Shown: positions 2,309 to 32,975, numbered from the stretch's first letter. The stretch is DNA of 64,000 bases from a virus (IMGVR_UViG_3300020577_007013), one strand, 5' to 3'. The notes: generated by a model not told the origin, from the letters alone. Numbers and translations: made by a program.

Positions 2309-2688
2309 CCTAAAAGCCTCGCTAAGGAATTCTTGATTGTGTATTTCTTTTTAGGACTTTGCATATTGTCAAATGTATTGAAGTAGTCTCGACGCATTTC
2401 TTCTTCGGTTTTCTTTTTCTTCGTTTCTTTGGTTTTTTCTTTTCGTTTGGACTCTATTTCATGAAGCTCAAATTTTTCTTCAATGACCGACTCTTCGTCG
2501 AGAGTAATTTCTCTGAATTTTTGAAGAGTACACTGTTTGAGAGTCGAAATGATAGAGCCGAATTTTGCATCGATGCATCGACCTTGGAAAATGAAGACAG
2601 TATCTGCTATCATCTTCTTTTTGGAAGATATCACATAGTAGACACCTTTTCGAAGTGTCTTAAAATCTTCTGTCGATAGGTCTTTCAT
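2305..2688 (-). CDS. Hypothetical protein
   Basis: 127-aa ORF, translationally coupled to the next gene. Confidence 0.7.
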   Translation of the reverse strand: MKDLSTEDFKTLRKGVYYVISSKKKMIADTVFIFQGRCIDAKFGSIISTLKQCTLQKFREITLDEESVIEEKFELHEIESKRKEKTKETKKKKTEEEMRRDYFNTFDNMQSPKKKYTIKNSLARLLG

Positions 2689-2701
2689 TTTCTGCTTCTT
2701 A

Positions 2702-2846
2702 AGGAGCCTGTGAGATATAAGACTGATAGGGAGTTGGGGCCCATAGTCTTGCAGATGATATGTCAGTCAATGTTGGAATAGGGGCGAGGTGAGCCCAAAT
2801 GATTGACTGCTTTCCTAGTTTCACCTTAATTCTCTCACAGACTCCT
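2702..2846 (-). ncRNA. Putative structured ncRNA (multibranch, ~145 nt)
   Basis: 14-bp closing stem 2702-2715/2833-2846 (one G-U on the - strand); inner stems CAGTCAAT/ATTGACTG and AAGACT/AGTCTT; GC-richer intergenic DNA. Confidence 0.6.
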
Positions 2847-2863
2847 GAAGGAACAGAAGTCCT

Positions 2864-3307
2864 TCAATTTTTTGACAACAGACTGAAGTGTCCTCTTTTC
2901 TTCGGTTGTACTTTCAGAACAGGAGATGGTGTGTATGAAGACTGTTGAACAGCTTCAACTGGTTCTGGACGACGACGTCTCTTAGAAGACCGATGATGAA
3001 TTTCAATTCCGAACTTCTTAGCGGTGTTGTAGAATAGAGAGAGTTCTGAAGTAGACTTAAAAAAGTCGATCACCTTATGTTTTGGATTCTCCATGAACTT
3101 TTCAAACTTACGTGCAGTTTGACGAATTGTCTCTGCAGTATGTTTGCGGTTCGTTCTCGGATATTTGAATCCGTTGCTCTGGATAAGGTAGAAAAGATTG
3201 TTTCGAGTGACTTTGTTTTTCTTACAAAACTCATCAATCGTTTGCTTTCCTACTTTCCTGCTCTTAACGAATTTTTTGTAAAGCGATTTTGCATTTTGTT
3301 TTTTCAT
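2864..3307 (-). CDS. Basic protein, possible helix-turn-helix DNA binder
   Basis: 147 aa, Lys/Arg-rich; TIDEFCKKNKVTRNNLFYL is HTH-like. Confidence 0.5.
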   Translation of the reverse strand: MKKQNAKSLYKKFVKSRKVGKQTIDEFCKKNKVTRNNLFYLIQSNGFKYPRTNRKHTAETIRQTARKFEKFMENPKHKVIDFFKSTSELSLFYNTAKKFGIEIHHRSSKRRRRPEPVEAVQQSSYTPSPVLKVQPKKRGHFSLLSKN

Positions 3308-3372: not shown

Positions 3373-4137
3373 ATGAAAAGGATTCTCCTGTTCTTCTCTA
3401 TTGTGCTTTCTATTAAAGCTTCTCCGAAAATTGTAGCAATTGCATTAGACGGTGTAAATGAAGAAGAAGGAATAAGAGAAAAGCTAATGAAATTCGGTAA
3501 GTATTACAAATACTGGTTCGGTAAATTGAAACAATGTAGAGTAGAAAGAACCGGAAATATGAGTCTTCCGGCTTATGCAAATTTTTTATCAGGTACCTCC
3601 AATCACAATGTTAAGTCCAATGATGTAGATGAGAAGATTAATAGGAAGACTTTACTCGATCTCTTTCCTAACAGTCAATTGTTCTCTGCATGGAGTCCTA
3701 TTCTCTATGTGGTGGGAGAATCAGAAGATAATGCTCATATGACTTCAGCAGAGTTTTACCCAAGAAAAGGAGATGATAGAGACATCTTAGAGAATTTCAA
3801 GAAAAAATACAATAGACAACAATTTGCTTTTATACATTTTTCTGACGGAGATAATTTCGCTCACTCTATGATGTATGAGAAATACAGAAAAGCTGTCAAT
3901 AAAGAAGTGAGATATGTGAAAGAGATCATCGACTTTGTTGAAGATGATACAACCGTAATAGCTTTCACAGACCATGGAAGAGGTCTTGGACATGATTGGA
4001 CTTCACATGGAGATTGGTTAGACGAGTCCGGAGATATCTGGATGGTGGTCTATTCTAAGAATAAACTCGATCTATCAAAATTCAAATGTGGACATGTAGA
4101 ATTGCATCATCTGATCAAGTCGATTTTAAACCGTTAA
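3373..4137 (+). CDS. Alkaline phosphatase-superfamily metalloenzyme with signal peptide
   Basis: IALDG, SLPAY, HFSDGDNFAH and FTDHGRG..HG motifs; hydrophobic N-terminus. Confidence 0.8.
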   Translation: MKRILLFFSIVLSIKASPKIVAIALDGVNEEEGIREKLMKFGKYYKYWFGKLKQCRVERTGNMSLPAYANFLSGTSNHNVKSNDVDEKINRKTLLDLFPNSQLFSAWSPILYVVGESEDNAHMTSAEFYPRKGDDRDILENFKKKYNRQQFAFIHFSDGDNFAHSMMYEKYRKAVNKEVRYVKEIIDFVEDDTTVIAFTDHGRGLGHDWTSHGDWLDESGDIWMVVYSKNKLDLSKFKCGHVELHHLIKSILNR

Positions 4138-5228: not shown

Positions 5229-5627
5229 TTAGTTCAGTATGTCCAAAAGTTTCTCTCTATATCTGTTGTCTCTTTTCATGTAGAATGGACTTATCTCTAT
5301 GGCTCTGAATCCTTCAGGAAGTTCAAAGTCATACTCTACTAAGTCAAGATCTTTCTTTTTCTTGAGAATCAGTTGTATGAATTCCTCTTCCTCAATGCCT
5401 TCGTAGTTATTTGTGGAAGTGACAAGAAAAGTTGACTTATCTTCTGTAGTGAAAATGGTATTGTTTTGGTAGAAATCTCCAAATCCTATGTTCTGTCTAA
5501 ATCTCGTTGCATAGAAAAAGAGTTTAGGATTATCTCTGAATTTGAACTTAAGACATGAGCAGTCAGCAATTGATCCTTGATATCTTCTTACATCTATACA
5601 TTGAACAAATCCAGAAAGGTCACGCAT
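5229..5627 (-). CDS. Hypothetical protein with the shared C-terminal tag
   Basis: 132 aa; ends RYREKLLDILN. Confidence 0.7.
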   Translation of the reverse strand: MRDLSGFVQCIDVRRYQGSIADCSCLKFKFRDNPKLFFYATRFRQNIGFGDFYQNNTIFTTEDKSTFLVTSTNNYEGIEEEEFIQLILKKKKDLDLVEYDFELPEGFRAIEISPFYMKRDNRYREKLLDILN

Positions 5628-6081
5628 CTTTTACCAACTCCATGACTTTATGATGGTAAGAAATTGGAAGAAGCAATTTGTTGATAGGAAAAATCTGAAA
5701 TCCTTGAGACTCAATCTCCTTGTCAAGATTCTTTGCTCCTCTCATATAAGGATCTTTGATAATGGAAGCAACTTTTGTAAAGTCTGTAAAGCTGACATGA
5801 CTGGAAATAAAGATTCCTTCTTTGGTTACTCCCACTGAAGTGACTGAGATTTTGAGAGAAGATCCTAATGTGTCAAATGGTTCGCAGATCACAAGATAGT
5901 TTTTCAATTGTCTGAAGTCTGGATGATTGACAGGTTGATCTGTAAAAGAGTATCTCCCAAAATCAACTGCAAACTCCTTGAATTTATTGTCTGTTTGAAA
6001 TTCTTTGGATTGAAAATGATTCGGGAAAAAATACTTCTCCAGTACTTTTTCAAGAATGTCAAGTACTAGAGTTGGGTTCAT
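5620..6081 (-). CDS. Hypothetical protein with the shared C-terminal tag
   Basis: 153 aa; ends SYHHKVMELVKDA. Confidence 0.7.
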   Translation of the reverse strand: MNPTLVLDILEKVLEKYFFPNHFQSKEFQTDNKFKEFAVDFGRYSFTDQPVNHPDFRQLKNYLVICEPFDTLGSSLKISVTSVGVTKEGIFISSHVSFTDFTKVASIIKDPYMRGAKNLDKEIESQGFQIFPINKLLLPISYHHKVMELVKDA

Positions 6082-6084
6082 TTG

Positions 6085-7098
6085 TTATAGTCTCTTTGTT
6101 CTTTTCTTCTTAAAACAATTTGCATTGTAAAAGTCTGTCATATTCTTTCTCATCCAAGCAGCAGGACTCTGTATTTCGTTATCTAAGACTTTCCTTAATT
6201 TAGGAATCCATCCTAGCTTAGAAAAGTCTATTCCAGAATTTAGAATCTTAGATTCCAGTCTCTTGATTTTTTCATACTTAAGTTTTTTATTCTCTTGTCT
6301 TTTATGTAGTTTTCTTCCTCTACAAGTTCCTAGTCTTTGTTTTTCTATGATCTCCTGAATATCATATTTAATTGACTTTTTTTCTTTCTCTTTTAGAAAA
6401 TTCAAGAACTTTTGAAATTCTTCATTGGGATTTTTATAAAAATTTACTCCAGCAATTCTGTAAATTATCCATCCGTCTGACTCTAACTCTAAGTCTCTTT
6501 TTTCATCATGAAGAATTTGTTTTTCCTTTAAATGCTGTTTTCCGTCCATCTCTAAGTCGATCTTAAATTCTAGAATAGCAAAGTCTAGAAAGTATCTCCC
6601 ACATCTGAATTGAAAGACATGATCTATTTTATTTTGAATAAGAAGAGACTCTAAGATTGATTCCAATCTAGACTTATTATTTATCATTTTCTTAGAATGA
6701 TACCAATTATTTCCTCTCCCTTCTCTATGAGCTTTTTTATGAGACTCTGAGAGTCTTCTTTTTGTCTCGTCACTTTTTGATAATTTTCTAGTAGGATTCT
6801 CTATCCAATTTTTTTTAAGTGACTCACTAAGCTTCTTTTTGATAAGGTCAGATTTCTCTTTTCCGTAAAATTCTTCCATAGAAAGTCCTTTTCTGGACTT
6901 AATCTGAATTCCGAGTCTTTCAAAATATTCTTTTTTTCTCCTTTTAGGAAATTTTCCTTTACAAGACTTTGAATGTATTGCCCTATTATGCTTTATCAGA
7001 AAATTACATTTCAGACATTTCCAATCTTCTGTGTAGAGATGTCTGTATTCGTCTTGTCTTTTTTCTCTTAGTTGTGTCCTTTTATTTCCAGATTGCAT
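6085..7098 (-). CDS. Free-standing homing-endonuclease-like protein (NUMOD3-like repeat plus DUF559/Vsr-like PD-(D/E)xK domain)
   Basis: SDETKRRLSESHKK; YFLDFAILEFKIDLEMDGKQH...DEKRDLELESDGWIIYRI. Confidence 0.8.
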   Translation of the reverse strand: MQSGNKRTQLREKRQDEYRHLYTEDWKCLKCNFLIKHNRAIHSKSCKGKFPKRRKKEYFERLGIQIKSRKGLSMEEFYGKEKSDLIKKKLSESLKKNWIENPTRKLSKSDETKRRLSESHKKAHREGRGNNWYHSKKMINNKSRLESILESLLIQNKIDHVFQFRCGRYFLDFAILEFKIDLEMDGKQHLKEKQILHDEKRDLELESDGWIIYRIAGVNFYKNPNEEFQKFLNFLKEKEKKSIKYDIQEIIEKQRLGTCRGRKLHKRQENKKLKYEKIKRLESKILNSGIDFSKLGWIPKLRKVLDNEIQSPAAWMRKNMTDFYNANCFKKKRTKRL

Positions 7099-7122
7099 TG
7101 TTTATTAAGTTATAGTAGTATA

Positions 7123-7160
7123 AAACGAGGCCCTAAGATATAGCTTTGTACCAGGGCCTC
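7123..7160 (-). terminator. Rho-independent terminator ending the ncRNA
   Basis: GAGGCCCT...AGGGCCTC followed by GTTTT on the - strand. Confidence 0.6.
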
Positions 7161-7605
7161 AACCATTTCCATGGTCATAGGCAATTAATGAGATAACTTT
7201 TCCATTTAACTGTAAGCTAATTTTTATTAGAGACGTCATAGCATTCGACTATTTCGGCCCTCATACAACAATGGGACTTATTGTATCAGGCGCCGAAATT
7301 GGGAGTTCAACCCAAACCTTCTCTTGATTTGTCTTACAGACTCGATTTATCTCTACCTACTATACTAAGATTAGGGTGAATAATCTGAGTTTCATAAAGT
7401 CCATCAACCATTTCTGATTGACGCGTTTACCTTTCGCCATCTCCACGTTCAGAATACCTTTTTCAGATACTCTCAGCGTGGAGACCTCTTTTGACAGAGG
7501 AAGGACTTTTTAATTCAGTCTTATTTTCAATCTTAGTCTGGGCGACGGTTCCTATGAACCGTCTCACCCTTTGCTCAACCTAGATAGCGAATCTAGTTGA
7601 GCTAA
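7123..7605 (-). ncRNA. Large structured ncRNA with two circularly permuted tRNA-like (Y-RNA-like) domains
   Basis: ~490 nt ORF-free region packed with stems; T-arm, loop-closed acceptor, D-arm order at 7229-7324 and 7396-7509. Confidence 0.75.
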
Positions 7606-7610
7606 TTTTC

Positions 7611-8339
7611 TCATCCGAAGATGAACTTCATTATGTCATTTCCAATTGTAGATCTTTCAACCTCAACTGAATTTGCTTCCTCTCTCGCAACCTTGACAGC
7701 TTTAGAAAGCTTGTCAATTTTATTTAAGAGGTCATTCTTTCTGTCCTGAGTTGTCGTACCAGAAAAACGAATTGTTGTGAACTGACCGACCACTTCGTCT
7801 CTGTAGAGAATTTCTGATTGTTCAGGATGTTTGTCAGTAGCTTTAGCTTTTGTAAAACTGAAAGGTTGCTTTAACGTTCTGTTTGTGCTTCTACCTTCAG
7901 TTTTGAAAAGACCACCGTCTCCTAAAGTCCATTTTTCAGCAGGATCTTGAACTGGGAATTTGTCGACAAAGGTCTTCAGATCTACCAACTGCTTCTCTAA
8001 GAAGATCAGATGAGTTGCAGGAACATCAGAAGCAATTACAGTACCGTCTACTGTAATGTTAGCTTTCGCTTTACAGTTTCCGTTATCGAGAGTTGCGACA
8101 ATGTTGATCAGATCGACAGTAGAGTCGTATGCATCTTTAATAGATTGCTCTACTGTGTACTGAACGATCTTAGACTCCGGTGGAAGAGTATCTTTCGAGT
8201 CGTCTGCTAAGGGCTTGTAAGTCTTATTGAATCCTTCGAAAAGATCTGATTTTTGGAGTTTGTGATACACCTCAGAGATCTTCGAAGTTCTTCTTGATTT
8301 TTCACCATTTGCAATGGCGATTACTTGTGTTAATTTCAT
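7611..8339 (-). CDS. Conserved uncharacterised coiled-coil protein, putative ncRNA partner
   Basis: KLTQVIA, TYKP...LPPE, VPATHLIFLEKQL, ATDKHPEQ, FSG and AREEAN match a widespread bacterial/phage hypothetical family (recognised from memory). Confidence 0.8.
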   Translation of the reverse strand: MKLTQVIAIANGEKSRRTSKISEVYHKLQKSDLFEGFNKTYKPLADDSKDTLPPESKIVQYTVEQSIKDAYDSTVDLINIVATLDNGNCKAKANITVDGTVIASDVPATHLIFLEKQLVDLKTFVDKFPVQDPAEKWTLGDGGLFKTEGRSTNRTLKQPFSFTKAKATDKHPEQSEILYRDEVVGQFTTIRFSGTTTQDRKNDLLNKIDKLSKAVKVAREEANSVEVERSTIGNDIMKFIFG

Positions 8340-8361
8340 AGTAAATAAATATATTTGACTT

Positions 8362-8574
8362 TCAGATCTCTGAAACTATTTGTCGAATTTTCTCTTTATA
8401 GAGAACTTCGGTGCTCGTCTCTTCCTTAGTTCTGACTATGGTGACTTTAGGCCATTCATAAGAGAGGCTTCCTCTATTGATACTAGAGGCTCCGATTCTG
8501 ACTATTTTCAATACGTTTTCAGGCATTATCTGAAAGTTAGATTTAATGAATTCTTCTGAGAACATATTCCTCAT
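8362..8574 (-). CDS. Mini-protein: copy of MCP residues ~75-114 plus C-terminal tag
   Basis: 22/40 identical to the MCP at 41577-43067. Confidence 0.85.
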   Translation of the reverse strand: MRNMFSEEFIKSNFQIMPENVLKIVRIGASSINRGSLSYEWPKVTIVRTKEETSTEVLYKEKIRQIVSEI

Positions 8575-8711
8575 TTCTCGTCGACTATCTTTTTGATTTT
8601 CTCTTTAAAATCATTTTCTACTTTGCTAGGTTTTTTCTCTTTAGGATCCAGACTATCATTGTCATTAGCCTTAATCCATTTCATAAAGTCTACGAATGTG
8701 TTAAGCCTCAT
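8571..8711 (-). CDS. 46-aa mini-protein with C-terminal tag (not in ORF track)
   Basis: MRLNTFVDFMKWIKANDNDSLDPKEKKPSKVENDFKEKIKKIVDEK; overlaps both neighbours. Confidence 0.75.
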   Translation of the reverse strand: MRLNTFVDFMKWIKANDNDSLDPKEKKPSKVENDFKEKIKKIVDEK

Positions 8712-8949
8712 TCAAAATTTCTTTGACCTTTTCTTTATAAGTGGATTCTACTGCAGAGACCGAAACCGGAGAAGAATAGACTCTGTCAATGAAGTATATC
8801 GCATCGTCAGGAGCTACCATCGGCCATTCAGTAATCAATGACTTAGCTACTAAATGAGTAGAATAGATTCTACCATTTTTATTTGATTTCTTCAAGAATC
8901 TCCTTGAGTTTGTCACAGTAAACTTTCTTATGAGCTTCTCTTGTGTCAT
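8701..8949 (-). CDS. Mini-protein: copy of MCP residues 108-129 plus tag (likely TTG start at 8895)
   Basis: TEWPMVAPDDAIYFIDRVYSSP is 16/22 identical to the MCP; AAGGAG precedes the TTG at 8895. Confidence 0.85.
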   Translation of the reverse strand: MTQEKLIRKFTVTNSRRFLKKSNKNGRIYSTHLVAKSLITEWPMVAPDDAIYFIDRVYSSPVSVSAVESTYKEKVKEILNEA

Positions 8950-9082
8950 TTGTAAGAGTGACTTCAGCCATAGTAGTATAAGAGTATCCTATACTATTGA
9001 CTTTTCCCATCTTGACACCTCCGTAGAACATTTCAAATTGTCCTGAACTCAGGTCTAGAAATCCGTGAGAACTACTTGACAA
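8879..9082 (-). CDS. Mini-protein: copy of MCP residues 279-293 plus tag
   Basis: NSIGYSYTTMAEVTL vs NILGYSYTRMAEMML (10/15). Confidence 0.8.
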   Translation of the reverse strand: MSSSSHGFLDLSSGQFEMFYGGVKMGKVNSIGYSYTTMAEVTLTNDTREAHKKVYCDKLKEILEEIK

Positions 9083-9284
9083 TGTCTTCTACCTTCTTTA
9101 CATATTCTTTTTCAAGTTCGGTTTTTTCTTTGATCTCACCTTGAACCCATTCCATAGTATATAGCTCCATGGCTTTCTGAACATGTGGATTATTGAAATA
9201 TAAATATTGGCTCTCTAAAAGTTCAGCGGCTTTTCTAGCTTTACTGTCATCTAGGAAATATTTCTTGATCTTGTCAATCCACAT
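9072..9284 (-). CDS. Mini-protein: copy of MCP residues 55-73 plus tag
   Basis: SKARKAAELLESQYLYFNN vs SRARNTALALENQERYLKN (9/19). Confidence 0.75.
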   Translation of the reverse strand: MWIDKIKKYFLDDSKARKAAELLESQYLYFNNPHVQKAMELYTMEWVQGEIKEKTELEKEYVKKVEDIVK

Positions 9285-9522
9285 CTTCGATAATTTTCTC
9301 TATTTCATCCTTGTAGTTAGTTTTCATTTTTGGATCTAACTTAACTCTTGGTTGTGGATATTGTCTCATGAATCCTGTGCAATCTATCCAGTCATCGAAG
9401 ATAAGTTGCATCTCAGATCTAGTGACTCCACCAAAGTCCATGCTATTATTGATCGAGACTATTCCACCGATCTTTCGACCATTCTGATCGAACACTCCTC
9501 CATCTCTGAGTTCAATTATCAT
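9274..9522 (-). CDS. Mini-protein with C-terminal tag
   Basis: 82 aa; ends NYKDEIEKIIEDVD. Confidence 0.75.
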   Translation of the reverse strand: MIIELRDGGVFDQNGRKIGGIVSINNSMDFGGVTRSEMQLIFDDWIDCTGFMRQYPQPRVKLDPKMKTNYKDEIEKIIEDVD

Positions 9523-9685
9523 CTAACATGTCCAAAAGCTTTTGCTTCTGTTCTTCTTCTTGAAGTTTTCTATTGAGTCGCTTTAGATTTTTGACTTCAT
9601 CCATTTGATGAATCAGCTCATTGACCTTTTCTAAATAGTCGGAGTCGCCTTCATTGTCAGACTTTGAGAATTTACTTGTCCTCAT
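9512..9685 (-). CDS. 57-aa mini-protein with tag (not in ORF track)
   Basis: MRTSKFSKSDNEGDSDYLEKVNELIHQMDEVKNLKRLNRKLQEEEQKQKLLDMLDDN; overlaps both neighbours. Confidence 0.7.
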   Translation of the reverse strand: MRTSKFSKSDNEGDSDYLEKVNELIHQMDEVKNLKRLNRKLQEEEQKQKLLDMLDDN

Positions 9686-10163
9686 AGGTCTCTTCTGTGT
9701 CGATTTTTAGTTCAGTCATTCCACTAGGCTTTCCATCTAACATCATTGTTGGAGGACTTATAAAAGGTAGCTGAGTTATTGGAAGATAAGGTGCATGAAT
9801 GTAGCCTTCAGTTAATTCAGAAAGTTCCATGACTTCAGGCTCTTTCTTTTTATTCTTGAAATTTGACATAAGAGCTTTGACATCCAGCTCTCCGTCTTTA
9901 TTGAAAATTTCTTTCTTTTTGTATTCTCTCTTAAAGAGATCTTTGAATTTTTCCCAAAGAGACTTTTTACGTGGAGAGTAATGCTTAAGTTTTCCGTACA
10001 TTCTGAAGAAGTCATCAGTCATTAATTCTTCATGAGTCTTCTCTTTTCTTTTCCAGAGTTTTTTCTGGAGTTTTTTCCAAAAAGACTTAGGCTTAGGTTC
10101 TACATACTGAAGACCAGGTTCTCCTAAATCTATGTAAGCTTTTATTTTCGAAATTTCAGACAC
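9672..10163 (-). CDS. Array protein with two amphipathic repeats and a gp23-type GY.HAPY.P motif
   Basis: KSFWKKLQKKLW and KSLWEKFKDLF; EGYIHAPYLPI. Confidence 0.75.
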   Translation of the reverse strand: MSEISKIKAYIDLGEPGLQYVEPKPKSFWKKLQKKLWKRKEKTHEELMTDDFFRMYGKLKHYSPRKKSLWEKFKDLFKREYKKKEIFNKDGELDVKALMSNFKNKKKEPEVMELSELTEGYIHAPYLPITQLPFISPPTMMLDGKPSGMTELKIDTEETYEDK

Positions 10164-10396
10164 TAAAAAAGATCCTTGATTTTTTGCTTGTACGAAGTCA
10201 ACAATTCAGTTGGATTATAATAGAGAGGCATTGATAGATTTTTAAGCCACTCAATTACTCTCTTGTCTCTTTCTCTTTGTCTAAGCTTATGTTCTTCAGC
10301 TATAGCATTTACGAGCATAAGCTCTATGTCTCCTATCTTAGAGAATGGACTTGAGTCTACCAACATAGTCATCCTTAACTTTACTTTTTCTTTCAT
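10163..10396 (-). CDS. Mini-protein: copy of MCP residues ~298-320 plus tag
   Basis: IGDIELMLVNAIAEEHKLR vs LGNVEDMLVRAVGDEHALR (10/19). Confidence 0.8.
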   Translation of the reverse strand: MKEKVKLRMTMLVDSSPFSKIGDIELMLVNAIAEEHKLRQRERDKRVIEWLKNLSMPLYYNPTELLTSYKQKIKDLF

Positions 10397-10529
10397 CTTC
10401 TACTACAGTTACAAAGCCATAGCCGATAGGGTCTTCATCAAAGAAATTCTTAGGAACTCCGGTAACTTTTGCTACCAGGTCGTAGAGTTCTCTGATCTTC
10501 TCATCTGTAAGTGATTCGTCTTTATTCAA
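10338..10529 (-). CDS. Mini-protein: portal-like segment plus tag (TTG start overlapping the VWA stop)
   Basis: LYDLVAKVTGVPKNFFD vs portal LLNALVVSTGLPRNLLD. Confidence 0.7.
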   Translation of the reverse strand: MNKDESLTDEKIRELYDLVAKVTGVPKNFFDEDPIGYGFVTVVEDERKSKVKDDYVGRLKSIL

Positions 10530-11935
10530 ATGATTGACCTGAAAGCTAACTTCGCTTGTGAAAGATCTTCGATATTTCCTGTATCCATGAAAGACAAAGA
10601 CTCTGAAAGTTTGTTGCAATTTTCAATGTTACCCATATCTTCCAAGAATACGAAGTGGAATTTCTTTCCTTGTACTCTATGCTTAATAAGTTCATTCATG
10701 GTAGGGATTCTGATATCCTCTGTACCGTCTGTTACCATAATGATGTCCGACTTATCAAGACCGTCTACTTCATTCTTGTCAATGTCCTTCACAGCATAAG
10801 TGAGAGCCATGTCCATGTCAGTACCACCATCTGGATGTGTATTGAGAATGAAGTCAAGAAATGTATTCCAATGAGCTCTTCCTTTTAGAACGAACAAGCT
10901 TCCTAAACGTCCTTCAAACCATCTGCAATAGAATGTCGTTCCGTCTTTCATGGCTTTCTTCGCTAAAGCGATTGCCACTGCTTTAATGAACATTTGACGA
11001 TTGTTTTCATGAGTGGATCCTGAACGATCTAACAAAGCATAGAGACATTGTTTAAGATCTTTTCTCTCTTTGTATTTCATGACTCTCAATGATTTGGTCA
11101 TGATCTTACGGTCAAGAACATCATCAATTGTAACTTCGAACTTGACTGCCTTGCTTACATCGTTCATTTTCTTCATCTTAGAATAGTGAAGATTGGAAGA
11201 AATGTTTTCAGTCTCGTAGAGTTTTCCTCTCTTCGATTGACTGAAGAATGATGTCTCCAGATTTTTAGCGATCTCAAAAATGGAAGCATTTTCATTAGAG
11301 AGAAGTTGCTGAACCATTTGCTTGATCTTGAGCTTCTTGTCCAAGATCTCTTTATAGGTCCTATCAAAGTGACCCATATCTTTTGTTGAACCTGTATTTT
11401 CGGTTTTACCGTCATCTTCAGGAACATCGTATGAGTAGTTCATTATGTGCTCGAATAAGAATCCGAATGAAGAGAAGATCTTGGATACATTTTGTCCAGT
11501 TGATCCTCCACCCATACCACCGTTAGGCTGACGACCAGCTTTTTGATTTTCAATGATAGCTGAGAAGATCTGACAAACGAAGTCAAATTTCTCCTCTAAA
11601 GATAGAGACTTGGATTCAATGTACTGCTCAACAATATCAGACTCAGCAAAATGAATAATGTCCATTTTGAGTTTGAACATCTGAGCTTCAGTGTGCTCAA
11701 TATTATTGACTTCACCTTTTTTGTATCTGTCGATCGCATTTCTTGAAATCTCCAGATCTGATGACATATACTTGAAACAATTTGTCTTCCCTTGAGCTAT
11801 GAGACAAAGTGTATCTTCAAGAACCTCTTTTGGAAGTGCTGAAAGAGAAGGGTACTTAGCGTACCCCTTGTTCACCATGTCGGTATAGAATGTAGGGAGA
11901 TCTATCTTTATGAATCTCATTTTACTTCTTATCAT
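10526..11935 (-). CDS. VWA-domain protein (ViaA/CoxE-like)
   Basis: MIDAS LLDRSGST, GGTD, MVTDG. Confidence 0.88.
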   Translation of the reverse strand: MIRSKMRFIKIDLPTFYTDMVNKGYAKYPSLSALPKEVLEDTLCLIAQGKTNCFKYMSSDLEISRNAIDRYKKGEVNNIEHTEAQMFKLKMDIIHFAESDIVEQYIESKSLSLEEKFDFVCQIFSAIIENQKAGRQPNGGMGGGSTGQNVSKIFSSFGFLFEHIMNYSYDVPEDDGKTENTGSTKDMGHFDRTYKEILDKKLKIKQMVQQLLSNENASIFEIAKNLETSFFSQSKRGKLYETENISSNLHYSKMKKMNDVSKAVKFEVTIDDVLDRKIMTKSLRVMKYKERKDLKQCLYALLDRSGSTHENNRQMFIKAVAIALAKKAMKDGTTFYCRWFEGRLGSLFVLKGRAHWNTFLDFILNTHPDGGTDMDMALTYAVKDIDKNEVDGLDKSDIIMVTDGTEDIRIPTMNELIKHRVQGKKFHFVFLEDMGNIENCNKLSESLSFMDTGNIEDLSQAKLAFRSII

Positions 11936-13094
11936 CCATTGGGAAGATCTCGTCTTCTGAAAGTCCAGATTGTGAGACCTTATCTTCGATCAATTTCTTA
12001 AGATCTTTTGCTTTCTCAAGAACTGATTTTTGGCAATTAGCTTGAGTCCATTCAGAGATTTTATCTTTGATATGTGAAGCGAGAGCTGCAAGCATTCTTG
12101 TTCTCTCAAGCTTATCATCATATTTGAGAATCTTAGTGTGAAGAGCTTTCTCAAATTTCATGAGCTCCATTCCCATTGCCATTGATTTTTCTGATTTGTC
12201 AAAGACAGCATCGAATTTGTCTGAGTTCTTGATGTCTCCACCATTCACAAGTGCATATTTAATGCTCTTGAGATTCTCAACTTCAATTGTCTCTTGACCT
12301 TTGAGGAATGCATCAGCTTTAGCGACAAGCAACATTTTATTTTTCTTTCTCGGACTGATACCGATACTTGTCTGCTGTGTGTACTCATCAAGAATTGCAT
12401 CGAACATGATGAGAAGCATATCAGAGAATTGAGGCTTGTATTTCTCAAATTCTTCGTGAAGAATCTTCAGATCATGGAAAGCAAATTTCGGATATTCTTC
12501 GTCAGAGATTCCTCTTAAGAAGTTGGAGAACATTTTGATTCTGCTTTCTTGTTTTACCAAGTCAGCAACTTCAGATGTGAAGAGAATACGATCATAAACA
12601 GCTCGAAGTTCTTTCTCCTCCTCTCTCTCTTGATTCGTTGTCATGATAGCTGTGAGTAGCTTTGCTGGAATTGTTCTGCTCTGTCTCGTAGATGATCTCT
12701 CGTTCAAGATCTCATTTGCAGAAACGAGAAGCTCTTCAGAAGCATTAAAGAATTCGTCCAATCTCGCAAAGTCTGTTGTGAGAAGTGAACCTTCAATGTT
12801 ATGAACGATGTTACCTTTCTTGAATTCCTCAATTGACTGAGGACCCATGATGTATTGGTCGTCCATGAATCTTGTGAACTGTTGTTCAAAGACTGTAGCT
12901 CCTGTAAAGCCTTTAAGAATCTTCTGACTTAGAAGTGTCTTCGCTGTACCTGGAAGTCCTTTTAGAAGCACATGCTCCTTAATGAGAATTGCCAATTTTA
13001 TTTGGTTTGTCTCATACTCTCTTTCAGAGAAAAAGTCCTCCATCTTTTTGAAATAATCTTGATAGTCTTGTTTAAGTTTTTTTACTTCCTTCAC
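11922..13094 (-). CDS. MoxR-family AAA+ ATPase (RavA-like)
   Basis: EHVLLKGLPGTAKT, LDEFFNA, ILNER, AVYDRI, ISPR. Confidence 0.9.
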   Translation of the reverse strand: MKEVKKLKQDYQDYFKKMEDFFSEREYETNQIKLAILIKEHVLLKGLPGTAKTLLSQKILKGFTGATVFEQQFTRFMDDQYIMGPQSIEEFKKGNIVHNIEGSLLTTDFARLDEFFNASEELLVSANEILNERSSTRQSRTIPAKLLTAIMTTNQEREEEKELRAVYDRILFTSEVADLVKQESRIKMFSNFLRGISDEEYPKFAFHDLKILHEEFEKYKPQFSDMLLIMFDAILDEYTQQTSIGISPRKKNKMLLVAKADAFLKGQETIEVENLKSIKYALVNGGDIKNSDKFDAVFDKSEKSMAMGMELMKFEKALHTKILKYDDKLERTRMLAALASHIKDKISEWTQANCQKSVLEKAKDLKKLIEDKVSQSGLSEDEIFPMDDKK

Positions 13095-13114
13095 TGTGAT
13101 CTCCTTGTGTTTAT

Positions 13115-13615
13115 TTATATAACGTCTTCTAGAATCGACAACAAAAGCTTGCTGTCTTCTCTCTTTTGTTGTTTATAGTGTTCGATGAACTTCGAACCTT
13201 CTTCAAATTCGTTAATGTATCTTCTCATATAGTCTGATTTTCCATGAGAAACTATGTATTCATCATAGAATTCTCTCGTATTTATAATGTCAAGAGAATC
13301 TGTAGGAATTGGAAGCAAGCCATACACAATGTATTCACTTTTTGCTTTTCTATTGTCTTCAACTGGGCAGTTTGTCTGAAACAAATAATTGAGTCCTTCT
13401 GCTCTAGAAGGAACTAAAGTCTGAAAATATTCTATATTGCTTCTAGAGTAAGTCTGACAGAAAGCTGTAGAGCTTAAATCATTGTGATGAAAGTTCCTAA
13501 CATAGAATTCATCTGTAGGAAGCTCTAGATCTCTGACCATTGTCCTCACATATTCGTAATGTGAATGTGTGAGAAAGTTTTTGCCCACACCTAGAAATAA
13601 TTTCTCTAGTGTCAT
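13115..13615 (-). CDS. Hypothetical protein
   Basis: 166-aa ORF. Confidence 0.7.
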   Translation of the reverse strand: MTLEKLFLGVGKNFLTHSHYEYVRTMVRDLELPTDEFYVRNFHHNDLSSTAFCQTYSRSNIEYFQTLVPSRAEGLNYLFQTNCPVEDNRKAKSEYIVYGLLPIPTDSLDIINTREFYDEYIVSHGKSDYMRRYINEFEEGSKFIEHYKQQKREDSKLLLSILEDVI

Positions 13616-14248
13616 TCAATCAGCTAAGAGATCGTCAAGAGAGATTTGCTTCTTGATATGTTTCTTGAGCTCTTCGTCTTCTTTTCCTTCGAGTCCTGTT
13701 GTAGTGCCAGCTTCACCTTCAGTATGTTGGAAAAGATACCGACCGTTCGAAACGCATTCTGAGTACTTGTTGATGAAGCAACCTACAAACTGTGAATCAT
13801 TTTTGCAACCATCGCAAGAGTCAGAAACGATTTGAATTTGATCAGGCTTTCTTACTCCATTGTATCCTACAAACGTCTTTTCATCTTCAGCTATCTTTGC
13901 AGTCTTTAAAAGATTCTCAGCTTGCTCTTCTGAAAGACCCATTGCCATAAGAGATTCTTTAGTCTCTTCAGGAATTTGAGCTGCTGCAGCTTCTTCATCA
14001 ATGTCTCCTGCTGCTACTTCTTCTTGATTTTCTTCGAAGTTTTCTTCTTCATGAAAGTCTTCCAAGACTTCAGCTTCTTGAGCTTTTTCTAAATTGATTT
14101 GTTTTTGTTGTTTAATCTCATCAGAAAGTGGTTCCCAAAGTTCATAGTCTGCATTTCCTAAACAGAATTTTTTAGCATCTATGCCTTTCGAACAATCTTT
14201 ATTTGCGTACCAACCGCAAGTGAGACAGGATTTGTTTTGCTGAGCCAT
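13616..14248 (-). CDS. Acidic protein with two Cys clusters
   Basis: CLTC..C..C and CDGC..C..C flank an acidic linker. Confidence 0.7.
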   Translation of the reverse strand: MAQQNKSCLTCGWYANKDCSKGIDAKKFCLGNADYELWEPLSDEIKQQKQINLEKAQEAEVLEDFHEEENFEENQEEVAAGDIDEEAAAAQIPEETKESLMAMGLSEEQAENLLKTAKIAEDEKTFVGYNGVRKPDQIQIVSDSCDGCKNDSQFVGCFINKYSECVSNGRYLFQHTEGEAGTTTGLEGKEDEELKKHIKKQISLDDLLAD

Positions 14249-14269
14249 GATTAATTATCATAGCTTTTG

Positions 14270-14578
14270 TCAATCGTCGATAATTATATGGCCGCTTTCA
14301 TTTACTTCAATTAATTCGTGATCCCTAGACACCGAAAAATAAGTGCAAGCGTCTTTGATATATTCCTTGGCTTTTTCGAAGTCTTTAAATTTAACTTCGA
14401 AAGTCCATCCTCCACTGACATAGCTAAAGCTTTTCCATTTACCCCCTTCTTTTTTATAAGGAACATAGTCGTACCCTTCTTTCTCTATTTTGTAATGGAC
14501 AGGAAGAGACTCTCTAGGAGTTTTCAAGACTTCTGGAAATCTTTCCTTAAGTGGTCTCTTAGATAAAGACACTGCCAT
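14270..14578 (-). CDS. Hypothetical protein
   Basis: 102-aa ORF. Confidence 0.6.
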   Translation of the reverse strand: MAVSLSKRPLKERFPEVLKTPRESLPVHYKIEKEGYDYVPYKKEGGKWKSFSYVSGGWTFEVKFKDFEKAKEYIKDACTYFSVSRDHELIEVNESGHIIIDD

Positions 14579-14945
14579 AACGTTCCTTCATAAAGTTCGA
14601 CCATAGACTTATCATATTGTCTCTTCCGTTAATGTTTGATGAATGGACTGTGAATCGTTCTACTTTACTGAGATCAATTTTTCCGTCAAGATCCATTTCG
14701 ACGAGTTTATTTAGGAAGTCTTTTCCTGTCTTCGACTCAAGTCCTAGGTCATGGTCAAGAGTCATCATTCTAGGAACTCCTAATTTAAGAATGAGCTCTA
14801 TAGCTTCATCATAAGTTCTAGCAATTTTCCAATTCCACTCTTCTCTCTTATACTTCTTCTGTCCTTTACAAGACAGTTCAGAAATAGCATTGGGAAATAT
14901 GTAATCGAGTTCCCTAATGTCGTCTAGGAAAAGATCATAGAGCAT
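14559..14945 (-). CDS. Cyclic-phosphate-processing receiver-domain protein
   Basis: LFLDDIR, ARTYDEA, LDHDLG..KTG, VHSSN..G. Confidence 0.8.
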   Translation of the reverse strand: MLYDLFLDDIRELDYIFPNAISELSCKGQKKYKREEWNWKIARTYDEAIELILKLGVPRMMTLDHDLGLESKTGKDFLNKLVEMDLDGKIDLSKVERFTVHSSNINGRDNMISLWSNFMKERYGSVFI

Positions 14946-16131
14946 GATTTGATATATTAAAGATTTCCTTAAGCTCTTTCAAAAACTTAGGATCTTTACA
15001 GAACTCTTTAGAAGGTTCATCAGATATCTTAGCGACAGGTTGTCCATTAATTTCTGACAACTTGATTACCATTTGAGGATTCTTTTTTCCGATATTGCAA
15101 GTCAGATGAGTACCTATTCCGAAGACGATTTTGATTTGACCATGAAATTTTTCATAGATCTCTGATGCTTTCTCAAATGTAATTGAGTCACTGAAGATTG
15201 CAGTTTTTGTCATTGGATCAATTTTCGATTTTTTGAGTTCCTGAATTAGAAAATCACACCATTCAATAGGATCACCGCTATCATGTCTGAATCCTGAAAA
15301 ATCAAGCAGTTGGGTTGAGAATTCTATCAATTGTCTAGAATTTATCGTGTCGGTCAAGGCTATATGATATTGTTCAGGATAGACTGAACTCCACATAGAG
15401 AAAGCTTCGTCTTGGAAGTATTGAATTGGATTCTGTCTTAAAACCTGAAATGCTTGGATGTACTCATGGGCCATAGTTCCAACTGCTCTAAGAGAAAATT
15501 TCTTAGCAAAGAAAACATTGCTCGTTCCAGTAAAATTCTCTGGACAATTTGTGAGAATCGCTCTTAAGATTGCTTCATGATGCCTAAATGATGCTCGTCT
15601 TCTAGTTCCGTAGTCTGAAAATTTAATTTCCTTAGCTTCCTTCTTTATGAAGGAAAGACCGTCCACTGTCTTATGGCAGAGTTCCAGTTCTTCTACCATG
15701 CTGAGACCGAACTCTCTTTCGAAATAGACTTCATTAAGGATGGATAGAATCGGTATCTCGAAGTAGGTGATCTCTTTCCAATTTCCTGAAATTTTGATTT
15801 GAAGCTTCCCATCCTGTTCATAGACATTTACATTTGATCTCTTCAACTTCAGAGTGGAGAGAAACTTAAGATAGTCTCTACTGAAGAGTCTAAAGGAATC
15901 CAAGTATTCGATGTCTTCTTTTGTGAAAGTGAGAGTACAAAGATGGTTAATTTCTTTTTCAATATCGTCTTTCCATTCTAGAAGATCGACTTCTGAACGA
16001 CAGATTAATTCGAAAGAAGCTGAGATATTCTCCCCTTTGAATCTCTCGAAGACGCAATTCCCCATTGTAAATTTGTAGAGATCCGTATCAAGTAGACTAT
16101 TGATGACCATAAATTTGCTCCGACATTTCAA
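14935..16131 (-). CDS. pncB: Nicotinate phosphoribosyltransferase
   Basis: SLLDTDLYKFTM, DYGTRRR, GTSNV, GTMAHE, RHDSGDP, FGIGT, VAKISD. Confidence 0.93.
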   Translation of the reverse strand: MKCRSKFMVINSLLDTDLYKFTMGNCVFERFKGENISASFELICRSEVDLLEWKDDIEKEINHLCTLTFTKEDIEYLDSFRLFSRDYLKFLSTLKLKRSNVNVYEQDGKLQIKISGNWKEITYFEIPILSILNEVYFEREFGLSMVEELELCHKTVDGLSFIKKEAKEIKFSDYGTRRRASFRHHEAILRAILTNCPENFTGTSNVFFAKKFSLRAVGTMAHEYIQAFQVLRQNPIQYFQDEAFSMWSSVYPEQYHIALTDTINSRQLIEFSTQLLDFSGFRHDSGDPIEWCDFLIQELKKSKIDPMTKTAIFSDSITFEKASEIYEKFHGQIKIVFGIGTHLTCNIGKKNPQMVIKLSEINGQPVAKISDEPSKEFCKDPKFLKELKEIFNISNHAL

Positions 16132-30779: not shown

Positions 30780-32975
30780 TTAGATATCGACTTTCACTTG
30801 ACGAAGATTGAATTCGACAAAGATGTCCTTATTTCCAACTTTTGATTTAAGAACACAATCTTCTCTCGAAGTGAATTCCTTAAACCATTTCTTAGCCATA
30901 ATGACTGAGAATTTTTGACGTTGGAGATCTGAACGAAGTTTGTAAAGTTCAGTCTTGGTTTCTTTGAGTTGCTCTTCCAACCAAGCTTCTTTTACTTTCT
31001 TCGATTTCTCTTTATCGAACTTTTTCTTGTAACCAGCATAGAGTTCTGCCATGATAAGCTCTCTTTCTGTTGGAGCTTTCTTGGCTTCCTCAAGCTTCTT
31101 GACAAGATCTTTGACTGTTGGTTTAGAGAATCCTTTTACAGCAACTTTAAACTCAGTAGCCATGTAGTAATCTGTCGGAGCTGCTGCTTTAGACTCAGGA
31201 GAGTAGAGTCCTTTCTTGATTCCATGTTCTTCAAGAAACTTGACTTGATCTGCTGTCAATGATTCAGACTTTTCTTCTTTGTCTTTCAGACCGTTCAGAA
31301 GATATTTGAATAGTGACTGCTTTTGTTCAAGAGCTGTCTCCTTGTAGACCATATCTGCAATAGGCTTGGCAGAGTCTATCCCTTCTGACATTTTACGATT
31401 TGAAACCGGAATCGATTTAAGTCGCAGAATGAAGATATCTTTCTTCAGTTGAGGACTCTTGAATTTCTCCAGCAACTCTTTAGGAGCCAATTGCTTGAGT
31501 TTCTTCTCAGTCTCTTTACTGACTGACACATAGAGTTCATCTATGTTGGGATATCCGTCCTTGATAAGAGAATAGTTCCGATACACTTTTGTCGGATATT
31601 CTTTTTGGAATCCGAGTTTCTTGAAACCTTCTTTTAATGTGACTGTTCCCGTCAGTTCTGCTCTTACAGACAGATTGAGTTTGGAATCATTCCAAGCCAA
31701 TGAGTTGAAGTAGCATAATTGATTCTGATCTGCCTTGAACTCTGGATATTTCTTATCAATCTCAGTTCCTTTTGAGATCTTGTTGTAAGTCCAACCGTCA
31801 TGACGAGGATAGAAACCAGCGTCATCGTCATTGATAAGGATATCGACCAAGTCAAGGAGACAGAATACATCGTCTTTCGGAACGTAATTCTGAACTTGAC
31901 CTTCTTTGAGACGTTCTGCCGGTGAGAAGAGAGCTTCTCTGATCTCATTCTCTACTCGACCATACTCATCATTTGTTCTTGCATTGTTGAGCTGGTCAAT
32001 GAAATATTTGTCTCCGAGATATCCCAGAACATCGATTGCCTTATCAGCTTTTGTTCTCATTGAGAGAATGTTCGCTGCAGCATAGAGACCTTTGATGAGG
32101 TACTCTTTCTTATTTGTGGATGAGCCTTTTGAAAGGTCACCTACAGAATCGACTTCCTTTGATCCGGCTGGTTTTTTCTCAGTGAGATAGAACAGAACAT
32201 TCTTGTTCTTTTTTGATGGGTTGAAGGTAACTGAGCTACCGTCTACATCATAAGCAATGATGTTCTTTCCTGAGATTGAGAATGGATAGAGAGCTGTCTT
32301 GTCAATCTCTACCTGAATTCTTCCATTTGAGTCTCTCGATGTCTCAACGAATTGAGTGAGAGTCTCATAAGAATTGTTCACATCTCCTAAATGGAGAAAT
32401 GAACCACCAATAGCAGACGACATTTGAGTGAGCAGCTCTCTGTTGTAATAGTTTCCTGATCCAACAAAGGCTGAATAGTAAAGCTTACCTTTCAGCTCGC
32501 CTAAAGCTGTAAAGATAGCCTTTATCTCTTTGTTGTAGTCCATCACACATGGCTGACCGTCAGTAAAGAAGTACAATACGAAATTGTCTTCTTTATAAGA
32601 AGGATCTTTCACCAATGTGTTGATCTTCTGGAGAATTTCTGAGAAGCAGGTTGTTCCCAAAATTCTTTTGTTCTGATCGAGAATGGTTGTGAGAGTCGCT
32701 TTGTTTTTGTCATTGACTTCAAATGCTTTCAACATGAAGTCGCAGTAGCCTTCTCCTGAAAACCATCCGATGGAATTCTTTTCATTTTCTCTTAATGAAA
32801 GAGAAAACTTTTTTACGTCTTCCACTACTGAGTTGATGTAGCCAGACATTGAGCCTGATCTGTCAATCACAGTAATGATGTGAAGTTGTTTGTCGAGTTG
32901 TTTCTCCTGTTCCTTATTTAATTCGACGTCTTTAGAGACGAGATACAGGTCGTCCCTGATCTTTATGTGTTCCAT
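30780..32975 (-). CDS. Large VWA-domain protein
   Basis: VIDRSGSM, GTTCF, FFTDG. Confidence 0.85.
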   Translation of the reverse strand: MEHIKIRDDLYLVSKDVELNKEQEKQLDKQLHIITVIDRSGSMSGYINSVVEDVKKFSLSLRENEKNSIGWFSGEGYCDFMLKAFEVNDKNKATLTTILDQNKRILGTTCFSEILQKINTLVKDPSYKEDNFVLYFFTDGQPCVMDYNKEIKAIFTALGELKGKLYYSAFVGSGNYYNRELLTQMSSAIGGSFLHLGDVNNSYETLTQFVETSRDSNGRIQVEIDKTALYPFSISGKNIIAYDVDGSSVTFNPSKKNKNVLFYLTEKKPAGSKEVDSVGDLSKGSSTNKKEYLIKGLYAAANILSMRTKADKAIDVLGYLGDKYFIDQLNNARTNDEYGRVENEIREALFSPAERLKEGQVQNYVPKDDVFCLLDLVDILINDDDAGFYPRHDGWTYNKISKGTEIDKKYPEFKADQNQLCYFNSLAWNDSKLNLSVRAELTGTVTLKEGFKKLGFQKEYPTKVYRNYSLIKDGYPNIDELYVSVSKETEKKLKQLAPKELLEKFKSPQLKKDIFILRLKSIPVSNRKMSEGIDSAKPIADMVYKETALEQKQSLFKYLLNGLKDKEEKSESLTADQVKFLEEHGIKKGLYSPESKAAAPTDYYMATEFKVAVKGFSKPTVKDLVKKLEEAKKAPTERELIMAELYAGYKKKFDKEKSKKVKEAWLEEQLKETKTELYKLRSDLQRQKFSVIMAKKWFKEFTSREDCVLKSKVGNKDIFVEFNLRQVKVDI

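Follow-up and report, generated by a model that had tools for sequence, protein, structure and literature searches.

Internal proteins of bacteriophage T4 are diverse and have only a short targeting peptide in common (PMC3012670, PMC9026906). This capsid-targeting sequence (CTS), carried by IPI, IPII and IPIII, directs these proteins to a single receptor, the prohead core (PMC3012670, PMC9026906). The T4 CTS is N-terminal and is cut after a glutamate by the prohead protease, at an L/I-x-E site. An analogous arrangement is described here for a 64,000-nucleotide stretch of viral DNA (IMGVR_UViG_3300020577_007013; the whole stretch is referred to as the window), in which 11 genes on the minus strand within positions 5229–10529 encode a common C-terminal sequence, the tag, which is predicted to be helical. 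The proteins that precede it differ, and at least six of these bodies are peptide copies of segments of the capsid and portal-like proteins of the same phage.

The CTS is the closest concept to the tag, since in both cases a peptide of about ten residues is the sole common part of diverse, fast-evolving small phage proteins (PMC3012670, PMC9026906). However, the tag lies 0–4 residues from the C-terminus in all 11 genes, and no consistent [LI]-x-E or similar site was found between body and tag; an [IL]-x-E sequence does occur within some tags, only one or two residues before the stop codon. Because of its position and the lack of a consistent cleavage site, the tag is not a member of the CTS family. 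A further difference from the T4 CTS is that this phage has an additional, CTS-like tag at the N-termini of other proteins. This N-terminus, M-x-x-Y-K-x-x-F-x-E, was observed on three window proteins (43826–44137, 59169–59612 and 59614–60315, all on the minus strand); none of the three carries the C-terminal tag, and one of them is located between protease-like and scaffold-like genes. To our knowledge, the T4 CTS is essentially the only published case of a short address peptide common to unrelated phage proteins. A literature search on shared C-terminal tags in jumbo phages, and on the DUF7873 family that is encoded beside the genes described here, found nothing relevant.

The encapsulation peptides of microcompartments and the cargo-loading peptides of encapsulins are terminal amphipathic helices or short peptides that dock unrelated cargo to a shell protein through a loose linker. 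The tag resembles these peptides as a predicted terminal amphipathic helix joined by a variable linker, but it has no detectable homology to them and its cargo consists of capsid and portal peptide copies, not enzymes. No BMC-H/P or encapsulin family turned up among about 50 scanned proteins of the window, which represents about one quarter of the genome. In T4, gp43, gp33 and gp55 carry sliding-clamp-binding C-terminal peptides, in which one hydrophobic motif on unrelated proteins docks on one hub. Tag positions 5, 8 and 9 have an h-x-x-h-h spacing (h, hydrophobic) that resembles motifs of the PCNA-interacting peptide (PIP) type; however, the tag is not at the extreme end of the protein and carries an invariant tyrosine and lysine. 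Phage genes for the clamp, the DNA polymerase and late-transcription factors are not present in the 64-kb window. The microcompartment peptides and the clamp-binding tails are thus regarded as functional analogues only. In ssrA-like degrons, recognition takes place in the last two or three residues, whereas the last residues of the tagged proteins vary. Lastly, pairs of a MoxR ATPase and a von Willebrand factor A (VWA) protein, such as RavA-ViaA, CbbQ-CbbO and those of jumbo phages (PMC7824862), have a counterpart here in an AAA+ MoxR protein and a VWA protein with an intact metal-ion-dependent adhesion site (MIDAS), which are translationally chained to the tagged genes. No known system of this kind has an array of tagged mini-proteins.

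The C-terminal tag

The tag conforms to [YF]-x-x-K-[ILV]-x-x-[ILM]-[ILVF] and is found in nine of ten small genes that form an array on the minus strand (A to J, from 10529 down to 8362; all but gene C), and in two further genes, K and L. The nine-residue motif is followed by one to four variable residues in nine of the 11 genes, and only A and B end on the motif. An x-[ED]-x sequence often trails the tag, and the last residues of the proteins differ in every gene and between orthologues. A preliminary description, made from the sequence alone, had quoted C-termini for nine array genes and for K and L, all of which are present on the minus strand; it had also stated correctly that the tenth gene, C, stops at T-Y-E-D-K, an end that is conserved in all three lineages. 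A further motif that it placed near the N-terminus of 36601–36972 is present, but is not significant (BLAST E 3.5).

The enrichment of the tag at C-termini was assessed with a strict pattern, [YF]..[KR][ILVM]..[ILVM][ILVMF], which was derived from the tagged genes themselves. This pattern has 11 matches in 19,338 residues, corresponding to the 91 minus-strand open reading frames (ORFs) of the window. Nine of these matches lie 15 or fewer residues from a C-terminus, all nine in 5229–10619, compared with an expectation of 0.17 from per-protein shuffles (maximum of 3 in 2000), and no C-terminal match was found in the other 80 window genes. Thus, the possibility that the motif is equally common at other C-termini, which the preliminary description had itself raised, is not borne out in the 64-kb window. 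A motif-free test, based on likeness among the C-terminal 15-mers within one locus and applied to 94 loci, detected four or more linked C-termini only in this window, in an unrelated phage contig (L168, see below) and in one glycine-rich case; the control with mid-protein segments detected none.

In a leave-one-out analysis with a position-specific scoring matrix (PSSM), the tags of J, I, H, G, F, E, B and L score 11.6–24.1 bits, and those of D, A and K score 8.5, 6.8 and 4.8 bits respectively; the highest-scoring window site outside the set reaches about 8 bits. Eight members of the set are robust, and D, A and K are marginal members held by their position and neighborhood.

Gene A (10338–10529; 63 residues, TTG start) carries the tag in its last nine codons (10341–10367), and gene B (10163–10366; 67 residues, alternative starts at 10372 and 10396) carries it at 10166–10192 (17.1 bits). 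They are followed by gene C (9672–10163; 163 residues) and by gene D (9512–9685; 57 residues), where the C-terminal tag (9515–9550) is weak and a better, invariant copy of the motif is found internally at residues 17–25. The tag is located at 9277–9315 in gene E (9274–9522; 82 residues; 11.6 bits), at 9075–9104 in gene F (9072–9284; 70 residues; 15.9 bits), at 8882–8920 in gene G (8879–9031; 50 residues, alternative TTG start at 9082; 16.3 bits) and at 8704–8739 in gene H (8701–8895; 64 residues, TTG start with an alternative ATG at 8949; 24.1 bits). Gene I (8571–8684; 37 residues, 34–35 in its orthologues) is essentially a linker followed by the tag (8574–8609; 18.2 bits), and the last gene of the array is J (8362–8574; 70 residues; tag 8365–8400). 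The two genes outside the array are K (5620–6081; 153 residues; tag 5623–5658), which fits the strict pattern and whose 97% identical orthologue in contig L006 keeps the tag, and L (5229–5627; 132 residues; tag 5232–5261; 17.3 bits).

Bodies of the tagged proteins

The bodies were compared by BLAST with all ORFs of the window, and orthologues from four related contigs (L004–L007, see below) were included. As judged from these alignments, six bodies (A, B, F, G, H and J) are peptide copies of two head proteins, the 496-residue major capsid protein and the portal-like protein. Residues 71–137 of the capsid protein (42657–42857, minus strand) are copied in J and H: residues 1–45 of J match capsid residues 71–114 with 53–60% identity (E 2.7e-12; orthologue E 1.5e-15), and H matches residues 106–137 (E 3e-10). 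A second capsid segment, residues 279–326 (42090–42233, minus strand), is copied in G (279–293; E 0.009, orthologue E 0.007) and B (298–326; E 0.001, L004 orthologue E 4e-4). From the portal-like protein, residues 54–107 (52333–52494, minus strand) are copied in F (E 4e-4; orthologues E 2e-5) and residues 363–386 (51496–51567, minus strand) in A. The direct match of A is weak (E 0.025); A also matches a mini-protein of the unrelated contig L168 (10187–10339; E 1e-4), which itself matches portal residues 352–387 (E 3e-9). A search of 1.84 billion representative proteins with a profile of J matched capsid-length proteins at residues ~70–125. No similarity was found between E and the capsid protein, or between E and G.

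The capsid protein was identified by its match to phrog_138, by the similarity of its family profile to PDB entry 9ukm, 'Gp23' (E 7e-5), and by gene order, since its gene adjoins the protease-like and portal-like genes. The Portal_T4 match of the portal-like protein is weak (E 6.5e-4) and under the curated cut-off. For the ten array proteins, K and L, searches of Pfam and PHROGs gave nothing under E 0.005. The ESM Atlas returned no usable relative for L or K, with only a weak DUF932-like lead for K (score 0.93).

H, I and J have a common 17-residue tail (BLAST E 0.005–0.05), and the capsid segments copied in H and J overlap; the alignments identify these three genes as evident duplicates. The bodies had been described as otherwise unrelated, which holds only in part: six of them copy the capsid or portal-like protein, and the description is wrong for H, I and J. 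On the other hand, the design of a variable bait with a constant tag, proposed in the same description, gains support from the six copies and from a second lineage that has its own tail.

Conservation and protein-level selection

Four short contigs from three Joint Genome Institute samples (L004–L007) carry the same array with 59–80% DNA identity. All tags are kept in these relatives, except that E is truncated in L005 and L006, and the changes within the tags occur at x positions or among isoleucine, valine and leucine at positions 5, 8 and 9. The divergence between L005 and the window (8074–15416) is mosaic, with 100% DNA identity over 14600–15400, a MoxR protein that is 100% identical (gene DNA 86–98%), a VWA gene at ~90%, and only 59–80% for the array and the DUF7873 gene.

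No tagged array was found at the loci of distant VWA relatives (41% identity; MoxR-VWA loci L001 and L003). A search of 160 DUF7873 loci of other large phages with the tag PSSM gave scattered single matches and no array; therefore, DUF7873 is not tied to the tag. Within the relatives and loci compared, the tag is specific to this lineage. INPHARED phages, searched with the DNA, gene J and the capsid protein, gave no match, even at the protein level, and no close relatives were found in IMG/VR via the VWA or DUF7873 protein alone.

When the tags are aligned by codon on the tyrosine, the information peaks at the second codon position, where the T of hydrophobic codons reaches 1.45 bits, and falls to its minimum at the third (mean 0.42 bits). 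Synonymous variation is frequent: the tyrosine is encoded by TAT in five genes and TAC in four, the lysine by AAA or AAG, and the codons for isoleucine, valine and leucine vary at their first positions. In two contigs compared with the window, the ratio of non-synonymous to synonymous differences (pN/pS) is 0.26–0.30 for the tag (pS 0.47–0.62) and 0.22–0.27 for the body (pS about 0.5–0.6). Since information is concentrated at the second codon position, synonymous codons vary and pN/pS between orthologues is about 0.3, selection on the tag operates at the level of the protein and not of the DNA. The ratios further show that tag and body are both under purifying selection.

Predicted structure of the tag and of gene D

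The tag had been proposed to be helical, and the AlphaFold2 model of J, based on a three-sequence alignment, agrees with this proposal. A helix is predicted over residues 54–69, which comprise the linker and the tag, with a predicted local distance difference test (pLDDT) score of 75–82, and is the sole confident part of the model. The hydrophobic moments of the tags at 100° are 0.31–0.71. The protein encoded by D is predicted as one 46-residue helix (residues 11–56, pLDDT ~97) that contains two copies of the motif, the invariant internal one and the weak terminal one. These models suggest that the tag is a portable amphipathic helix of 9–13 residues, which linkers of varying sequence connect to a large number of different small proteins. 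A membrane-targeting helix was considered and rejected, as the tags are nearly neutral (net charge -4 to +2) and rich in lysine and glutamate.

Fragment-plus-tail proteins in other lineages

The profile search with J also detected mini-proteins of other phages. Capsid and portal fragments with a common tail are encoded on L168, a 36-kb contig from an unrelated uncultured phage. Four of its 24 genes (3466–3795, 3805–3990, 6374–6742 and 10187–10342) carry capsid pieces (residues 79–112, 174–250 and 299–328) or a portal piece (352–387), and exactly these four genes end in H-[GN]-V-[IL]-[FI]-stop (p ~9e-5). Their neighbors are thymidylate synthase (Thy1), Tet/JBP and radical-SAM genes. On another contig, L171, a protein with capsid residues 57–128 (251–979; E 1.5e-20) and three neighbors around a clamp-loader gene (982–1527, 2623–3219 and 3467–3640) all terminate in [DE][DE]-F-F-stop, which is similar to clamp-binding motifs of the PIP type. 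Structural-protein fragments joined to a tail common to several genes of one genome are thus recurrent, while each lineage has a tail of its own. Shared C-termini of another sort, glycine-rich tails of the G-x-G-x-G-N-G-T-G type, are found on seven small genes in another giant phage (L110, 4762–5243 and 15746–17313).

Possible functions of the tag

The tag can be taken as a real, translated element under selection at the protein level, helical in the model and tied to structural-protein fragments in two lineages. The explanation that we prefer, with confidence divided about evenly for and against it, is that the tag serves as a portable helix for docking or addressing that a single shared partner recognizes, so that each protein consists of a bait and a handle. 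We infer that the tag docks to a partner, and the proposals below on the identity of this partner have the same standing. A single reader protein would bind the hydrophobic face of the tag, formed by positions 1, 5, 8, 9 and sometimes 12, and would bring all the tagged proteins to the same place or machine. Because the tagged bodies are mostly short capsid or portal copies, the array would produce 'bait + handle' adaptors, in which the bait binds the usual contacts of the segment it copies, whether these are capsid and portal subunits not yet assembled or host sensors that recognize such proteins, and the handle couples the partner of the bait to the reader. The portability of the tag is evident from its presence on bodies that derive from different regions of two proteins, on the near tag-only protein I and on the larger K and L. 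The tails of the window, L168 and L171 differ as would be expected from co-evolution of each tail with a single reader.

For this reader, the nearest candidate, though an unlikely one, is the co-translated MoxR-VWA pair, whose link to the tag is adjacency only. Jumbo-phage MoxR-vWA pairs have been proposed as virion-assembly chaperones (PMC7824862). In a rather unlikely extension of the adaptor proposal, the capsid or portal peptide would be displayed while the constant helix plugs into a phage machine such as a MoxR-VWA remodeller, so that host sensors or premature assembly partners that bind the bait would be delivered for neutralization; lineages would then keep the baits and swap the handle. 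Capsid and portal proteins are known to be recognized by several bacterial immune sensors.

Several observations weigh against a docking helix or against this reader. D, A and K are weak members by leave-one-out scoring, and the tag is no better conserved in orthologues than the bodies (pN/pS 0.30 versus 0.22). The E tag, which is full in L004, was shortened in L005 and L006 by a 1-nt deletion that shifts the frame; therefore, a tag can be dispensable. H, I and J arose by duplication, so part of the sharing reflects common descent. The MoxR-VWA pair is disfavored as the reader because no such pair is found beside the fragment-plus-tail proteins of L168 and L171, and because its distant relatives lack a tagged array.

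Self-association of the tags is a rather unlikely alternative, in which the helices would bundle as a short coiled coil, perhaps nucleated by D, and the baits would be shown together on a multivalent particle. The hydrophobic positions 1, 5, 8, 9 and 12 have an a/d-like spacing, and the long helix predicted for D, with its two motif copies, is of interest here since a lone long helix usually means an oligomer. However, the conserved part of 9–13 residues is short for a stable coiled coil, and the invariant tyrosine and lysine are atypical core residues.

The preliminary description had listed a degron among the possible roles of the helix, which we consider quite unlikely. In this case, small proteins made early would be marked by the helix and removed at a set time through an AAA+ protease or adaptor of phage or host origin, so that the fragments are cleared before head assembly. 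Such a function would be logical for capsid and portal fragments that could poison assembly, the genes lie among early or middle replication and metabolism genes, and an AAA+ gene is adjacent. On the other side, recognition of known C-terminal degrons depends on the extreme terminal residues, which vary freely here, and we know of no MoxR ATPase that acts as a protease partner.

A second head-loading signal would be a C-terminal counterpart of the T4 CTS, targeting the proteins to the prohead for injection into the next host; we regard it as very unlikely. There is a precedent in T4, where varied cargo proteins have a single short tag (PMC3012670, PMC9026906) and where Alt and gp21 have C-terminal propeptides (PMC9026906), and the bodies derive from head proteins. 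Nevertheless, a T4-like N-terminal tag is already present on three window proteins that lack the C-terminal one, no consistent protease site precedes the tag, and the array is 30 kb away from the head genes.

It is similarly improbable that the tag has no separate function and that the genes are diverged tandem paralogues, with the helix as the best-kept part of one small-protein family. The adjacency of the genes, the 17-residue tail of H, I and J and the overlap of H and J on one capsid segment would fit such a history, but the bodies correspond to non-overlapping regions of two proteins, the larger K and L stand apart behind the DUF7873 gene and an inserted endonuclease gene, and the homologous baits of L168 are followed by another tail.

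An origin of the tag in a DNA or RNA signal (a Shine-Dalgarno sequence, translational enhancer or coupling element for the next gene ~30 nt downstream) is hardly credible, for although the next gene starts 22–35 nt past the tyrosine codon in nine of 11 cases and AAGGA(G) falls on tag positions 6–7 in B and G, this spacing follows from the C-terminal place of the tag in closely packed genes, the tag persists in J and A although their spacings differ (61 and 1 nt), AAGGA(G) is limited to those two genes, and the codon-position information and the high synonymous turnover in orthologues point to the protein. A Shine-Dalgarno origin, which had been put forward as an objection to the tag, is thus largely refuted. 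A nascent-peptide stalling motif was also rejected, since the distance from motif to stop varies from 9 to 13 codons.

Discovery of a reader of the tag would give a set of giant-phage 'ORFan' proteins a common site of action at once, and would explain why the virus expresses fragments of its own shell, either for assembly control or as decoys for capsid and portal immune sensors. The portable tag would also be a practical tool for directing proteins during infection. The new element is a C-terminal label on unexpected cargo, namely peptide copies of the phage's own capsid and portal.

Genomic setting

The window comes from a metagenomic contig of 253,865 bp. The G+C content is ~36%, and nearly all genes are on the minus strand. 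Its gene content points to a deeply divergent, uncultured, T4-like giant phage, with T4-like markers that include topoisomerase II subunits, RIIA, RIIB and a DnaB-like helicase. The head module in the window contains the portal-like gene, the protease-like gene and the capsid gene. The prohead-protease-like gene (44191–46212, minus strand; 673 residues) combines a weak Peptidase_S77 match at the N-terminus with a long repetitive coiled-coil region and an acidic tail, and may represent a protease-scaffold fusion.

The MoxR-type AAA+ ATPase (11922–13094, minus strand; 390 residues; Pfam bpMoxR 2.8e-26, AAA_5 2.4e-15) overlaps the gene of the VWA-domain protein (10526–11935, minus strand; 469 residues), which is located directly upstream of the array and whose stop codon overlaps the TTG start of gene A. 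Overlapping stops and starts chain the array to this pair. The MIDAS residues of the VWA protein (D303, S305, S307, T372 and D403) are invariant across seven homologues. Past the array, the order continues with the DUF7873 gene (7611–8339; Pfam 1e-82), a gap of ~500 nt, an endonuclease-like gene (6085–7098), and K and L. The gap (7099–7610), downstream of DUF7873, contains no ORF and had been suggested as a possible RNA; a search of 7050–7650 against Rfam found no family, and the part from 7121 to 7442 is ~71% identical in L006 and L007. The endonuclease-like gene (minus strand; 337 residues, DUF559/MTES_1575) is replaced in L006 by an unrelated 204-residue ORF, and thus looks like a mobile insertion between DUF7873 and K.

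Just upstream of the MoxR operon, a cREC_REC receiver-like protein (14559–14945) is encoded beside a nicotinate phosphoribosyltransferase-like gene (14935–16131), both on the minus strand. A second VWA-domain protein (30780–32975, minus strand; 731 residues) is located far from the MoxR gene.

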